Below, in pieces: positions 11,587 through 16,498 of a DNA stretch of 51,588 nucleotides. Made by a program: the position numbers and the translations under genes. The stretch is from Desulfobulbaceae bacterium. GTDB taxonomy: Bacteria > Desulfobacterota > Desulfobulbia > Desulfobulbales > SURF-16. Numbering within the stretch: the first letter of the stretch is position 1; each line of letters starts with the position of its first letter. The DNA is taken from contig QKJV01000214.1 in assembly GCA_003249165.1 (NCBI GenBank), positions 1-51,588 of the forward strand, written 5' to 3'. The notes beneath the pieces were generated by a model that was given only the letters and a program-made list of their open reading frames with translations, did not search any database and had not been told where the DNA came from.

Positions 11587-12561
11587 TCAATGCGTAAAGA
11601 TGGTTTTTCCCTTTTCCTTATTTTCACGTTTAAAGAGCTTTTCAATATTTCGCCAGACAAGTAAAAAAGACTCTCTGTTTGCACATTTCAGAGAGAAAAG
11701 AAGTTCGTCTTTTTCAAAAGACGGACTATGTTCAATCCGCGCCTCTTCGGGCAGGGAAAGATTTGCTATGAAGCTTTTGAATTCCTTTTCCGCTTGGCTC
11801 AACCGCGGGAATCTTTCATCGGTAAGCCATTTCATAAGGTTGGTTGTTTTCTGAGGAATGTTGGCCGAATCATGGTTGAGGATCTCATCAATACTTTGAT
11901 TCCTCAGAAAATTTGCGATGGTTACATTATTACGGACAGCGAGTTCCCTGCAGGTTATTAATAATTTTTTCTGATTACCGACGCTTAATCGAAGCGCTTC
12001 AATGATTTCATAAAGAGATAATCTGTCGCTGAAAGGAATTTTACAGAGTTCAAAAGCAACTTTGTCGTCGAGTATTCCCTCATGAATGGAGACAAGCAGT
12101 GGTTCCTCCAGTTCCAGTAAGCGCAAATCACGCTGAATATGATAGACTGATGGCGAATGTCCCATCAGTGGAAGAAAACGTGACGCAACTGTTTTTTCAT
12201 CGGTATGTGCTAACACTTTACGAAAAAAAACAGCTCGCTCAACGGGGGTCAGGGGAGAGGATAACAGGGATTCTTCAAGGCAAATGGCAAACGTGTCTAA
12301 CGCATCTGCTTTGTCGGTCAGTTTATGACAATCACATGTTGTTCCTTTATCTTCAAGAGCGGCAAGAAGTCTTTTGCGTCCTGAAACGATAGCAAATGAG
12401 GAAGATGATTTTTCTTTGACAACAGGAGGATGAAGGATTCCGCAACGTTTGATGGATTTAGTCAACACCGGGGGAACAGAAACAGGGATAAAAGATGGTG
12501 TAAGTGAATAGGTGCTATCGGAAAAATCTATATTGTTGATACTTATCCGTGAGATATGCAT
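11587..12561 (-). CDS. ParB N-terminal (ParB/Srx) domain protein, orphan
   Basis: SIKRCGILHPPVV...AIVSGRKRLLAA matches the ParB GxxR box; helical C-terminus. Alternative start 12579. Confidence 0.7.
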   Translation of the reverse strand: MHISRISINNIDFSDSTYSLTPSFIPVSVPPVLTKSIKRCGILHPPVVKEKSSSSFAIVSGRKRLLAALEDKGTTCDCHKLTDKADALDTFAICLEESLLSSPLTPVERAVFFRKVLAHTDEKTVASRFLPLMGHSPSVYHIQRDLRLLELEEPLLVSIHEGILDDKVAFELCKIPFSDRLSLYEIIEALRLSVGNQKKLLITCRELAVRNNVTIANFLRNQSIDEILNHDSANIPQKTTNLMKWLTDERFPRLSQAEKEFKSFIANLSLPEEARIEHSPSFEKDELLFSLKCANRESFLLVWRNIEKLFKRENKEKGKTIFTH

Positions 12562-12691
12562 GAAATCCCTCTTTGGCATTGCGCTTTTTGCTTATGGTTA
12601 TATACTGGATGAAAATAATATCATAAAGATAATTTTTAACAACCCTGCCTATTTATGCGTCAACAGATATGATTTTAAGAATAGTAGTGCA

Positions 12692-13339
12692 ATGAGAGTC
12701 ATAATGATTGCTGCTATTACCTTATGCGGGCGCATCACTCCTGCACCATTGGGAAGTCGACTCGATCGTCGTTTTCTTGAAAAGATGCGCGATGAAACTG
12801 ATGCCAGTTTGATAGGAGGAGGTACTCTACGGCAGGACAATCCGGAAATGCGGGGTACCGGTGGTAAACTGGGGGAACGTATAAGGGCAATTATGACCTA
12901 TTCAGGCGATATCCCGGTCCGGGACAAAAAGATTTTCACTCAAGGACCGACTCCTCTTGTTTTTACTGCCCGGGAGCATTATGAATCTCTTACTGTGCGT
13001 CTTGGTAGAGGGGCCGAAGTCATGGCCCTTCCCCTAGACGCAGGTGGTTTGTCCGTTTCAGGTGCTATTGCTGAACTGCAGAAAAGGGGAGTCCGGTCGG
13101 TGCTTATTGAAGGAGGCGGCAGAATGAATTTTTCGGCCCTCTACCAGAGGGTCGTTGATGAAGTTATGGTGACAATTACGCCCAAACTATCTGGTGACAC
13201 CTCAGCGGCGAGTCTGATTACAGGACCTGAATCAGTTGGAACTCCTTTGCTTGATCTGCAACTTCTTTCCTGTAGGGAGCAGACCACAGGAGAAATTTTT
13301 GCCCACTATCTTATCCGTTATGAGGATCAAAATGCATAA
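12692..13339 (+). CDS. RibD C-terminal / DHFR-like NAD(P)H reductase (standalone)
   Basis: AITLCGRI, MRDETDASLIGGGTLRQDNP, VLIEGGG.MN and VDEVMVTITPKL are RibD_C motifs; no deaminase domain. Confidence 0.85.
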   Translation: MRVIMIAAITLCGRITPAPLGSRLDRRFLEKMRDETDASLIGGGTLRQDNPEMRGTGGKLGERIRAIMTYSGDIPVRDKKIFTQGPTPLVFTAREHYESLTVRLGRGAEVMALPLDAGGLSVSGAIAELQKRGVRSVLIEGGGRMNFSALYQRVVDEVMVTITPKLSGDTSAASLITGPESVGTPLLDLQLLSCREQTTGEIFAHYLIRYEDQNA

Positions 13340-14084
13340 ACAGGAGCTCGCCATTCTTTTTTCCGGAGGGACAGATTCATTAGCCCTCTATGCATTGGCA
13401 ACAGCAGGTCATCATCCAGACCTGCCGCGACCAAGGCGGATTCACCTGCTGAATATGCTTAACGGGATGGGACGCTTCCCTGATTTTACCAGTAACCGTT
13501 TCGAGACAGCAAAAAAAATTCTGGTCAGACGTTTCCCTGAACCTGAAGACATGCCGAAAGCCTTGTTGGTAGAACTCGATATGGGGAGACTGTTTCAAGA
13601 TTTGTGGCTTGATCGGTATGAGGAGTTGATGCCACGTTACGGAGGGAAAAATCTGGTATGTGTAGCATGTAAGGTTGCCATGCATATTAGAGGGATTCTT
13701 TACTGCAATGAACATCTTATACCTACACTCGTTGCCGGTTATACAAAAAAACAGAACTACTATCCTGAACAGACTCCTGTATTTATGGAGAAAATTTCTA
13801 AATTCAGTGGACAGTTCGGGTTATCGGTCCATTTTCCGGTTTATGATGACTTTGAAGAGGTTATGACAACCCGCCATCTGCTTGAGGATTATGGCCTCCC
13901 ATCAACCGGTGGAGGGGAACGAAAATGTCTTTTCAGTCAGACCTTAACAACTGCTACGGAAAAGGAAATTGGTGCATATCTCGATGATATGCTGCCTTTG
14001 GCACAGAACTATATCGAAAGCATTCAGGACGGGAGGATCAGGGATGCTGCTGCTTGTTTCCCACTAGGAAGTAAAACTCTTTAA
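13332..14084 (+). CDS. uncharacterised PP-loop (adenine nucleotide alpha-hydrolase) protein with CxxC and a distal Cys
   Basis: N-terminal ILFSGGTDS PP-loop, CVACK, later ERKCLF. ATG 13332 follows a GAGGA RBS and overlaps the upstream gene. Confidence 0.7.
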   Translation: MHKQELAILFSGGTDSLALYALATAGHHPDLPRPRRIHLLNMLNGMGRFPDFTSNRFETAKKILVRRFPEPEDMPKALLVELDMGRLFQDLWLDRYEELMPRYGGKNLVCVACKVAMHIRGILYCNEHLIPTLVAGYTKKQNYYPEQTPVFMEKISKFSGQFGLSVHFPVYDDFEEVMTTRHLLEDYGLPSTGGGERKCLFSQTLTTATEKEIGAYLDDMLPLAQNYIESIQDGRIRDAAACFPLGSKTL

Positions 14085-14102
14085 TTGTAGATAGGAGATG
14101 TT

Positions 14103-15038
14103 TTGGGAGAAAATTTTTTGCCGAGAACAATCCGTGTTGATTGTGAACCTTCACTCATTAACATGGAAACCCATAAAAAAGTGATCACCTCGGGTACAGA
14201 CGTACCTGAGCAACCGCCTTCTTTTTGTGTAGATCTTAATGAGGTAGGTATATCAGGTAAGACCGTTTGGGTACTCCTGCCAGAGGGCCGTTTGCCTTTT
14301 ACGGCAACCATCACGGTGGACCTTCCGGGACATGCTAGAGGAATTCACATGTCCCGCCTTGAGCAGGCAATAGCTGATCTGCACGAACGCCCATTTGCCA
14401 GACTTAGTCAATATGTGCGTGCTTTGGTTGAAATGATAGTTGAGCGTCAGCGTGGAAACCATGCACGGGTAAGTCTTCAAGGGAAGAGACCCATGCTGCG
14501 TCAATCAAAAATCAGCCGACAGATTTCAGTCGATCCATTGCTTGTTAAAGTTTCGGCGATGATAGACAAAACAAACTCAAACACGATCTTTCTTTCTAAC
14601 GGCGTGGGAGTCTGTCACATTACCTCATGTCCATGTACACAGGTTTACAATCTTGATGTTTTTCCCGAGCGTGGCAACTGCCCGATGCCTACCCATTCTC
14701 AGCGCTCACAGACATGGTTGCATCTGCGTGGAGAGTGTAAAATCCCATCATATAACGATTTGCTGAATTGTCTTGAAAATTCCCTGCATCTGACCCAGGA
14801 TCTTCTGAAAAGGCCGGATGAGGCAGAAATAGTTCTGAAAGCACATATCCATCCCCAGTTTGCGGAGGATGCGGTTCGAGAGACGGCGCGGGCTGCAGCG
14901 GTGATGTTCGGCCCAGTATGTCCGGCAGAAACCGGGATCGTCATTGAATCGCTCAGCCTTGAAAGTATTCATATCCACGACGTCTGTTGCCGGTTGGAAA
15001 CTACCCTCGGATCAATCTATTCCCTCCTCGATGAATGA
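14103..15038 (+). CDS. GTP cyclohydrolase FolE2/MptA family (MptA-like)
   Basis: GIHMSR, TSCPC, THSQRS, LLKRPDE, AH.HPQFAEDAVR and ESIHIHD motifs. Alternative start ATG 14163. Confidence 0.85.
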   Translation: MGENFLPRTIRVDCEPSLINMETHKKVITSGTDVPEQPPSFCVDLNEVGISGKTVWVLLPEGRLPFTATITVDLPGHARGIHMSRLEQAIADLHERPFARLSQYVRALVEMIVERQRGNHARVSLQGKRPMLRQSKISRQISVDPLLVKVSAMIDKTNSNTIFLSNGVGVCHITSCPCTQVYNLDVFPERGNCPMPTHSQRSQTWLHLRGECKIPSYNDLLNCLENSLHLTQDLLKRPDEAEIVLKAHIHPQFAEDAVRETARAAAVMFGPVCPAETGIVIESLSLESIHIHDVCCRLETTLGSIYSLLDE

Positions 15039-16498
15039 GAAGTGAAAACGAGGCTCCAAACAGATACCCTGATTTCCTGTTAAGAACCATAGGATTGCTT
15101 GCAACCAGACTTGCAGTTGAAGTCTATGTCGTAGGGGGAACGGTCCGAGATTGGCTAAGGGGCATTTGGCCCCGGGATCTTGATCTGGCCGTTTCGCATT
15201 CCGCTCTTGATTTTGCCAGAACATTAGCTGCTGATCTGCATGGAACTTTTGTTTTGCTTGATGAAGAAGAGCAGACAGCAAGAGTGATCTGGAAGGAAAA
15301 TCTCGTCGATATTGCTGGATTTCGTGGAGGGGCTCAGGATATTTGTACAGACCTCCTTTTGCGTGATCTGAGCATAAATGCAATGGCCATCCGGTTCCAA
15401 GACTTCGGAAATTTAAACAAGCCGAAAGAAGAGGTGCTCATTGATCCGGCAGACGGCCTGTCTGATCTGCGCAAAGGTATTATCCGGTTGCTTGGTCAGC
15501 GTGTTTTGACAGATGATCCTTTGCGACTACTGCGAGCATTTCGTTTTTTTGCTGAAAATGGATTTGTCATCGAACCATACTCATGGCAGATTATTGTTAC
15601 TTCTCGTGAACTCATTCGTTCTGTATCTCCAGAGCGCATATCTCACGAACTTGATTGTATCATAGCAAGTTGCAGAGCTGCGGATACAATAGAATTGCTT
15701 GTTCATTCCGGAGTTTTGCCTCTTCTGTTACCTGAACTCGCTATGGGGGGAGGGATAAGGCAGCCAGCCAGTCATCATCTTGATGTCATGAGACATAATA
15801 TAGAAACTTTGCGACGGATGGAGGAAATTTTGTCCCAGCCGGCAGATTACTATCCCGAGCAAGGTGAGGTGATCAGCAGCTATCTCGCTTGTGAAAGGAA
15901 AATTTTGTGGCTCAAATGGGCCGCTTTGTTTCATGATCTGGGGAAGCCCTCCGTGTGTAAAATTATTGATAAACGTATAACTTTTTATAATCATGACCGT
16001 GTTGGGGGTGAGCTTGTTGGGGCAATTGCCCAGCGGTTACGCTGGAGCAAGGAAAAAACATCGATAATCAGTAAGTTGATTGCTTTACACATGTGGCCTT
16101 TTCATCTAAGCAATAGCCGTAGAAAAAAAGAAATCACTGCAAAGGCGTGTCTGAAACTTTACAGGGCTGCAGGAAAAGATCTGACAGGGCTCTTTCTGCT
16201 GGCAATGGCCGACAGTCTGGCAGGACAGGGTTCAGGAAAGCCAGAGAATATGGAAAAGGAACTTGCTGCGCTTTACCGGCAGATACATGATATCTGCAGA
16301 ACCCGAGTTGAGCCTGTTTTCGCAAGCCCCCGGTTAGTAACGGGCAATGATTTGATCGCTTTTGGCCTAAAACCTGGACCTCATTTCAAAAAAATTTTGT
16401 CAGAGGTGGAAAATGCGCAGGTTGAAGGAACGATATCCAACCGTGATCAAGCCCTTGATTGGCTAAGACAATTATGCCTCTCCTTTGATTTGATTTGA
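15035..16498 (+). CDS. tRNA nucleotidyltransferase/poly(A) polymerase family protein with HD domain
   Basis: YVVGGTVRD...DLDL, RDLSINAMA and DDPLRLLRAFRF in the NTase head; HD domain H...LFHDLGK...H..VG...D; C-terminal LVTGNDL..G..PGP. Confidence 0.9.
   Translation: MRSENEAPNRYPDFLLRTIGLLATRLAVEVYVVGGTVRDWLRGIWPRDLDLAVSHSALDFARTLAADLHGTFVLLDEEEQTARVIWKENLVDIAGFRGGAQDICTDLLLRDLSINAMAIRFQDFGNLNKPKEEVLIDPADGLSDLRKGIIRLLGQRVLTDDPLRLLRAFRFFAENGFVIEPYSWQIIVTSRELIRSVSPERISHELDCIIASCRAADTIELLVHSGVLPLLLPELAMGGGIRQPASHHLDVMRHNIETLRRMEEILSQPADYYPEQGEVISSYLACERKILWLKWAALFHDLGKPSVCKIIDKRITFYNHDRVGGELVGAIAQRLRWSKEKTSIISKLIALHMWPFHLSNSRRKKEITAKACLKLYRAAGKDLTGLFLLAMADSLAGQGSGKPENMEKELAALYRQIHDICRTRVEPVFASPRLVTGNDLIAFGLKPGPHFKKILSEVENAQVEGTISNRDQALDWLRQLCLSFDLI

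Follow-up and report, generated by a model that had tools for sequence, protein, structure and literature searches.

What is made by a short operon that joins a reductase, a PP-loop ATPase and a GTP cyclohydrolase? The operon in question lies in a contig of a Desulfobulbaceae bacterium (GenBank assembly GCA_003249165.1, contig QKJV01000214.1, positions 1 to 51,588; the whole stretch of 51,588 nucleotides is referred to as the window), from a host genome of 3.5 Mb in 497 contigs that is 91% complete with 6.5% contamination. It consists of a RibD_C-type reductase (gene 1), a PP-loop enzyme (gene 2), a paralogue of the FolE2/MptA family of GTP cyclohydrolases (gene 3) and a nucleotidyltransferase with an HD domain (gene 4) (Table 1). 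A first description made from the DNA letters (the sequence-only reading) took the four together as a compact pathway to a modified pterin cofactor or other GTP-derived metabolite. We have found that genes 1–3 make up a genuine, conserved pathway that is so far undescribed and draws on known enzyme superfamilies; gene 4 does not belong to it. Our proposal for the product, to which we give a probability of about 0.45, is that GTP would be converted to a reduced pterin-type compound in which the 4-oxo group of the ring (O6 of guanine) is replaced by sulfur.

The cofactors derived from GTP (folate, biopterin, methanopterin, molybdopterin, flavins and deazapurines) are thought to be well mapped. 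A unit of three to four genes, conserved with 58–89% identity in eight or more of the sulfur-cycling bacterial families sampled, fits none of the mapped pathways, and its central PP-loop enzyme lies outside every curated family. A search of the full-text literature, subscription journals being outside its coverage, returned nothing relevant to this combination of genes.

Co-occurrence and gene order

The distribution of the genes was followed in an even set of 401 genomes from the phylum and in 41 genomes of the order. The PP-loop protein finds a match at E (expect value) ≤ 0.001 in 23 of the 401; in 17 of these it is a strong orthologue (E ≤ 1e-97, 58–100% identity) and in the other six there are distant homologues only. 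Orthologues of the cyclohydrolase (E ≤ 1e-30) are found in exactly the same 17 genomes, which come from 8 families. Within the order, 18 of the 41 genomes have both genes, 21 have neither, one has the PP-loop gene alone and one the cyclohydrolase alone, each gene being present in 19. Families f1, f114, f115, f118 and f119 contain carriers and non-carriers of each gene, and f121 does so only for the PP-loop gene. Because related genomes are not independent, the counts make the statistics look stronger than they are; what points to genes working together and being lost together is that, within a single order, they are repeatedly either both present or both absent.

The genes also lie together. 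The RibD_C gene is directly upstream of the PP-loop gene in 14 of 16 orthologue loci from the phylum genomes. In a second set of named loci, the best 80 of 147 found, in which the genes were mapped by tblastn, it lies on the same strand and no more than 300 bp upstream in 71 of the 76 that have enough flanking sequence. Where at least 8 kb is available downstream (43 named loci), the cyclohydrolase is present in 33, a GT2 glycosyltransferase in 23 and the nucleotidyltransferase, following the cyclohydrolase, in 22; all 36 named loci that hold both the GT2 and the cyclohydrolase have them adjacent and on one strand. The arrangement is beyond chance: many genomes show the same succession of RibD_C, PP-loop, (GT2) and cyclohydrolase genes. 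Named carriers belong to the Desulfobulbales (Desulfurivibrio, Desulfocapsa and Hydrosulfovibrio), SEEP-SRB2, Eth-SRB1 and the Thermodesulfobacteriaceae, with Thiovibrio and Dissulfurimicrobium in addition, and all carrier records are from the Desulfobacterota (Thermodesulfobacteriota in the records). Thus, the association of genes 1–3 that was suggested from this one locus holds, by presence and by linkage, well beyond the host genome. The best reading is that they form one conserved unit, a dedicated and non-essential pathway apart from folate and riboflavin synthesis.

The glycosyltransferase gene, of ~278 amino acids, often separates the PP-loop gene from the cyclohydrolase. Seven of these intervening genes form one cluster and all six of those scanned are GT2 glycosyltransferases (PF00535). 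The 12 loci nearest to the window (L055–L066), together with L071 and L130, have the cyclohydrolase and no GT2. The best match to the cluster GT2 in the host genome has 33% identity and is broken by a stop codon, and in five close relatives the best match reaches only 35–38% identity; GT2 orthologues of other lineages match the GT2 queries at 42–61%. The GT2 therefore belongs to the unit in most lineages and was not found in the window's clade with the queries used, for which reason we treat the unit as three genes here. This form would make the sugar step an optional one.

Some loci show further variation. One genome of the window's family (G220) has a DNA methylase (PF01555) and a type III restriction Res-type helicase (PF04851) inserted at L032:8848-14552, separating the PP-loop gene from the cyclohydrolase, both of which are retained. 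In Desulfurivibrio the cyclohydrolase lies far from the PP-loop gene, beside the nucleotidyltransferase, and a gene of the uracil-DNA-glycosylase superfamily is found directly 3' of the PP-loop gene (L034:8845-9561, L035:8812-9528, L087, L101, L109, L120 and L123). A DUF166 gene lies just 3' of the cyclohydrolase in four loci, all outside the order (L037:5654-6271, L046:1305-2033, L047:10487-11116 and L131:8295-8897), and is possibly a fifth gene that the unit includes in some cases; the copy in L037 scores 265 bits to the NCBIfam model 'DUF166 family (seleno)protein DfsP'. The bacterial unit of RibD_C, PP-loop, GT2 and cyclohydrolase genes is also present in a metagenome-assembled genome labelled 'archaeon' (L107). 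The other FolE2 gene of that genome scores 325 bits, like the canonical FolE2 of bacterial carriers, no second, different PF02649 type was found in it, and its label or binning is probably wrong. Around distant PP-loop homologues in six other phylum genomes the neighbourhoods are varied, B12-radical SAM genes and peptidases being among the neighbours, and no theme is shared.

The PP-loop enzyme and its relationship to YcfA

No Pfam or NCBIfam model matched gene 2, even at E = 10. The sole significant relative of solved structure found by sequence is YcfA of Erwinia amylovora (PDB 9kq6; E = 1.6e-10, or 3.8e-12 with a profile), the 6-thio-GTP synthase of the YcfA–YcfC 6-thioguanine pathway. An AlphaFold2 model of gene 2 (predicted local distance difference test, pLDDT, 89.4; predicted template modelling score, pTM, 0.89) gives the same result: YcfA is the best Foldseek match (E about 4e-15, template modelling (TM) score 0.75–0.89, 22–23% identity), and the next, TtuA, MnmA, QueC, LarE, NcsA and ThiI, follow at E about 1e-5 and TM 0.4–0.5. 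YcfA is described as activating the ring carbonyl of GTP by adenylation and attaching L-cysteine to it, after which YcfC cleaves the adduct to leave a thioamide (PMC12494993). Gene 2 and YcfA (structures 9kq6, 9kq7, 9kq9 and 9kqd) are similar in size and have the same PP-loop fold; YcfA itself assembles as a two-layer heptamer whose active site lies between subunits.

The residues assigned to the active site of YcfA (roles from PMC12494993) can be followed into gene 2. The ATP-site residues Asp19, Gln129 and Glu183 correspond to Asp15, Gln141 and Glu196, the guanine-site pair Glu134 and Gln135 to Glu146 and Gln147, and Lys169, at the phosphate tail, to Arg181; all six positions are invariant in 14 orthologues of gene 2. 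Three others are not invariant: Phe132, which stacks on the guanine, is Tyr144 in gene 2, Tyr128, which positions the L-cysteine, is Lys140, and Arg18, which binds phosphate and cysteine, is Thr14. The ATP-site Asp, Gln and Glu and the guanine-site Glu-Gln pair are thus common to the two proteins. By analogy, this relationship suggests that a guanine or pterin is attacked at its ring carbonyl, and we propose that gene 2 would adenylate this carbonyl and then insert sulfur.

The main difference from YcfA is a triad of cysteines in gene 2, Cys110, Cys113 and Cys199, which is invariant in the 14 orthologues and stands where YcfA has Leu, Glu and Ser. Cys199 comes three residues after the catalytic Glu196. 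A CxxC pair with one distant cysteine is the pattern of the [4Fe-4S] site in TtuA, TtcA and NcsA. The same triad is found in 11 of 14 distant representatives of the superfamily, and the three without it are YcfA-like at those positions, one of them having YcfA's own residues. Given this distribution, the triad looks ancestral in the superfamily and the cysteine-adduct route of YcfA looks derived. The genetic setting differs as well. A scan of 91 neighbouring proteins found no cysteine desulfurase or C–S lyase family and no pyridoxal phosphate-dependent desulfurase or lyase, which fits a direct use of sulfide. No YcfC-type C–S lyase or Nudix gene is linked to gene 2 among these neighbours, its partners being a GTP cyclohydrolase and a reductase instead. 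It is inherited within one phylum as part of a conserved unit, whereas YcfA belongs to the antimetabolite cluster of a pathogen.

TtuA, TtcA, NcsA and LarE share the PP-loop fold, as weaker matches, and in them too sulfur replaces an adenylated oxygen. Gene 2 differs in having no sequence-family match and neither zinc fingers nor RNA-binding parts, and its substrate is probably a free nucleotide or pterin. Against 1.84 billion representative sequences, the orthologues of gene 2 make up one cluster at 50% identity (402.7 bits) plus fragments, and the next score down is 121 bits; in all, E ≤ 0.001 holds for 356 proteins. Matches to the PP-loop protein in the protein atlas are only unnamed or loosely named clusters of ThiI, QueC and DUF7411 type. 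No PF01171 protein (TilS/TtcA family) was found above cut-off in the host genome, a family found in all 14 control genomes, and this is probably because the assembly is 91% complete and in 497 contigs.

The weaker fold matches bear on a different chemistry, in which gene 2 would insert nitrogen, ammonia attacking the activated carbon to give a 2,4-diaminopteridine or a 2,6-diaminopurine nucleotide. Many PP-loop enzymes are amidotransferases or amidoligases, and GMP synthase, NAD synthetase and QueC are among these matches; QueC has a zinc bound by cysteines, and no sulfur-carrier gene is linked among the neighbouring proteins scanned. The closest relative by a wide margin, however, makes a thioamide, the cysteines of gene 2 are next to the catalytic Glu196 rather than in a zinc knuckle at the C-terminus, and no glutaminase domain or partner is linked. 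All carriers seen are, moreover, from the Desulfobacterota, a phylum of sulfide producers. We therefore consider amination quite improbable.

The cyclohydrolase paralogue

Gene 3 scores 148.5 bits to PF02649, against a cut-off of 25, and so belongs to the same Pfam family as FolE2 (GTP cyclohydrolase IB) and MptA (the archaeal enzyme of methanopterin synthesis). When aligned to solved FolE2 structures (3d2o, 2r5r and 8g6c) it is seen to keep the HMSR, CPC, HSQRS, LLKRPDE and ESIH motifs, and the cyclohydrolase motifs are conserved in 11 orthologues. It differs from both enzymes in falling below their equivalog cut-offs (TIGR00294 for MptA, 127.7 against 220; NF010200 for FolE2, 111.8 against 215 bits) and in having ~40 extra residues at the N-terminus and an insert of roughly 12 residues after CPC. 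With all of the FolE2 motifs in place, activity on GTP or a close analogue is expected.

There are three PF02649 genes in the host genome. The copy on contig C378 is a canonical FolE2 (248.5 bits against the NCBI cut-off of 215). The copy on contig C482 (L002:1501-2271, + strand, 257 amino acids, PF02649 151 bits) is without CPC, H-x-QRS, KRPDE and ESIH and, because these catalytic motifs are lost, is probably not a cyclohydrolase; its neighbours are a response-regulator-like open reading frame and another that by eye resembles the glycyl-tRNA synthetase beta subunit. The host genome also contains folP and, together on contig C438, a full ribD and ribBA. When five relatives were searched with gene 3, all five gave an orthologue (49–68% identity) and four a second, weak match (33–35%). 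A search of four genomes with the family model found a canonical FolE2 (264–328 bits) alongside the paralogue (152–155 bits) in every case, so that, in the genomes checked, the paralogue always accompanies a canonical FolE2. Gene 3 as the sole FolE2 of folate synthesis, which the sequence-only reading had named, together with a failure of the genes to co-occur elsewhere, as what would speak against its pathway, is thus ruled out by the C378 copy, and the checked relatives carry both types; genes 1–3 do co-occur elsewhere. A place in the riboflavin pathway is ruled out by the ribD and ribBA elsewhere in the genome.

Another explanation is that the genes share no pathway and are syntenic spare or stress-time isozymes of folate and riboflavin synthesis, for instance metal-sparing paralogues. 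All the families involved are of housekeeping type, and FolE2 itself is known from other bacteria to stand in for FolE without needing zinc. Yet no FolE of type IA, for which a spare could substitute, was found in the host genome (91% complete), the genes score below every equivalog cut-off, and their presence and absence are shared exactly in the 401 genomes and nearly so in the 41. To our knowledge PP-loop enzymes have no role in folate or riboflavin synthesis. We regard this explanation as very unlikely.

The reductase

Gene 1 matches PF01872 (RibD_C) with 84.7 bits against a cut-off of 24.1 and, like its orthologues, its protein starts with MRVIMIAA. The RibD_C fold, the EGGG nucleotide-binding motif and a stand-alone size are common to gene 1 and the archaeal diaminopyrimidinone reductases 6p8c and 2azn (ArfC/MJ0671), its nearest solved relatives (E about 2e-10); the first two features are those of the RibD reductase domain too. 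It lies far below the equivalog cut-offs, with 76.6 against 186.45 bits for TIGR01508 and 77.4 against 150.15 for TIGR00227. The ribosyl reductases of the riboflavin pathway have conserved Asp-Asp-Pro and Leu-Asp-Gly motifs. In 15 orthologues of gene 1 the first position is variable (DNP, GDA, GDP, ENA, QGC and GPV) and the second is an invariant Leu-Cys-Gly. By sequence gene 1 is a divergent paralogue of the ribD reductase domain, present besides the separate full ribD of the host, and the motif changes suggest that its substrate is probably other than the riboflavin intermediate.

These relatives nevertheless bring in a ring-opened product. The cyclohydrolase would then act as GTP cyclohydrolase II does and release 2,5-diamino-6-ribosylamino-4(3H)-pyrimidinone phosphate, the RibD_C protein would reduce the ribosyl to a ribityl group and the PP-loop enzyme would replace the 4-oxo group, giving a thio- or amino-ribitylaminopyrimidine, possibly the precursor of a flavin-like compound. 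The best matches of gene 1 are indeed diaminopyrimidinone phosphate reductases (TIGR01508, 6p8c and 2azn), and GTP cyclohydrolase I passes through the ring-opened compound in the course of its reaction. On the other hand, gene 3 keeps every FolE2 motif and offers no visible basis for a truncated reaction, and the reductase has a variable Asp-Asp-Pro position and an invariant Leu-Cys-Gly in place of Leu-Asp-Gly. No lumazine- or flavin-synthase-like gene is linked in the neighbours scanned or the named loci mapped. A ring-opened product is unlikely in our view, less so than amination.

The nucleotidyltransferase

The sequence-only reading counted the HD nucleotidyltransferase among the pathway enzymes. 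That reading was largely right for genes 1–3 and does not stand for gene 4. Orthologues of gene 4 are found in 40 of the 41 genomes of the order, including all of those without genes 2 and 3, and it is therefore a housekeeping gene. Its domains, those typical of class II (CCA-type) tRNA nucleotidyltransferases, are PF01743 (PolyA_pol head, 63 bits), PF12627 (RNA-binding, 47.1), PF13735 (tRNA_NucTran2_2, 33.9) and PF01966 (HD, 28.8), and it is below all equivalog cut-offs. The host has three PolyA_pol-family genes, of which one encodes a PcnB-like enzyme (302.4 bits against a cut-off of 305.65) and one an A-adding-type enzyme of 880 amino acids (932.6 bits over its full length, below the cut-off of 1440). 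By elimination gene 4 probably adds CC to tRNA as one part of a split CCA system; three-enzyme sets of this kind have been reported for Geobacter. Its breadth of occurrence and this three-enzyme set rule it out as an enzyme of the pathway.

Within the order gene 4 follows the cyclohydrolase very consistently, and this extends to four genomes of the genus of Desulfurivibrio alkaliphilus and D. dismutans in which genes 1 and 2 are elsewhere. Outside the order it was found in one of eight mapped cluster-bearing loci (L039, which is without the cyclohydrolase), and tblastn mapping found it in none of the named loci of SEEP-SRB2, Eth-SRB1 and the Thermodesulfobacteriaceae. We read the linkage as inherited operon structure, reflecting a shared transcription unit only.

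The same adjacency, kept even where genes 1 and 2 are elsewhere, could be taken to mean that the pathway modifies nucleic acid, for example to make a new guanine-derived tRNA base. FolE2 catalyses the first step towards the 7-deazaguanines of tRNA and DNA, and many PP-loop thiolases, some of them among the fold matches of gene 2, act on tRNA. This is highly improbable when set against the distribution of the nucleotidyltransferase, which is present regardless of genes 1–3 and almost never at the cluster outside the order. No transglycosylase or queD/queE-type gene is linked either, and the 250 residues of gene 2 include no RNA-binding domain, as in YcfA, which acts on free GTP.

The proposed pathway

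In the reading we prefer, a thiolated pterin, gene 3 would open and re-close the purine of GTP to give a dihydroneopterin phosphate. Gene 2, with ATP, would adenylate the carbonyl of the 2-amino-4-oxo-pyrimidine ring, either on GTP before the cyclohydrolase step or on the pterin after it, and sulfide, carried by a cluster or metal that Cys110, Cys113 and Cys199 bind, would then take the place of the AMP. Gene 1 would reduce the product with NADPH. In most lineages the GT2 would then add a sugar; in the window's clade, where no cluster GT2 was found, the product would be the aglycone.

Several observations count against this scheme. Thiolases of TtuA and TtcA type are missed by the sequence profile of gene 2 and their fold match is weak (TM about 0.45). 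The three cysteines could form a structural zinc site instead of holding an Fe-S cluster. With Tyr128 of YcfA replaced by Lys and Arg18 by Thr, the delivery of sulfur cannot be copied from YcfA. The nearest solved relatives of the reductase act on ribosylamino-pyrimidines and not on pterins. In the order, G410 has the PP-loop gene with no detected cyclohydrolase and G428 shows the reverse. Finally, no natural thiopterin was found in the literature searched, again with subscription journals outside its coverage.

Glycosylated pterins are themselves known, as biopterin glucoside in cyanobacteria, limipterin and tepidopterin in green sulfur bacteria and solfapterin in Sulfolobus. A cyclohydrolase, a reduction and the transfer of a sugar to a pterin would explain the GT2 of the four-gene form. 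The pterin glycoside pathways, however, need no PP-loop enzyme, the known cyanobacterial transferase is from another glycosyltransferase family, and the window has no GT2.

A thioamide chemistry known so far from the antimetabolite of a plant pathogen is, through gene 2, tied to what is apparently a conserved metabolite of environmental anaerobes. A bolder form of the thiopterin proposal, which we hold to be rather unlikely, is that the product would be the first natural 4-thiopterin and gene 2 the first Fe-S-dependent PP-loop enzyme to thiolate a free nucleotide or pterin directly with sulfide, the product possibly being a metal-binding cofactor or metallophore. If so, sulfur at position 4 beside N5 would form a chelating pair for soft metals, through which the compound could serve the sulfide-producing Desulfobacterota in one of these roles, with a sugar attached in most lineages and without one here. 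Desulfurivibrio alkaliphilus is a cultured carrier, so that the product can be sought directly.

Layout of the locus and its surroundings

The four genes are as tightly linked as was first described (Table 1), their boundaries, strand and overlaps agreeing with the list of open reading frames and with the sequence of the first junction. Genes 1 and 2 overlap by 8 bp, 18 bp separate gene 2 from gene 3, gene 3 starts with a TTG codon and its junction with gene 4 is an ATGA overlap.

Table 1 Positions in the window of genes 1–4 and of the gene upstream of them
Feature	Position	Strand	Basis
Gene 1, RibD_C-type NADPH reductase (215 aa)	12692-13339	+	PF01872 match
Gene 2, YcfA-superfamily PP-loop ATPase (250 aa)	13332-14084	+	SGGTDS PP-loop, CVAC, similarity to YcfA
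Gene 3, FolE2/MptA-family GTP cyclohydrolase paralogue (311 aa)	14103-15038	+	PF02649 match
Gene 4, class II nucleotidyltransferase with HD domain (487 aa)	15035-16498	+	PolyA_pol-type domains
Weakly ParB-like protein (330 aa)	11587-12579	-	ParB_N 17.9 bits, below cut-off
aa, amino acids.

A search for riboswitches and other RNA elements around the genes gave only two matches, both at chance level (E = 0.24 and 0.84), and a scan for promoters and terminators found no more sites than in shuffled sequence. A family scan of the window's neighbours found no fol or que genes in the flanks, in agreement with what had been noted at first, and the riboflavin genes are not adjacent either, ribD and ribBA being elsewhere in the genome. 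The flanking genes encode an ABC ATPase, an HlyD-type protein, the weakly ParB-like protein, a carbohydrate phosphorylase, an RNase_T-type exonuclease and a DUF294 protein. The ParB-like gene is divergent from the reductase, and a protein with 32–68% identity to it is found at the same place in most Desulfobulbales loci.

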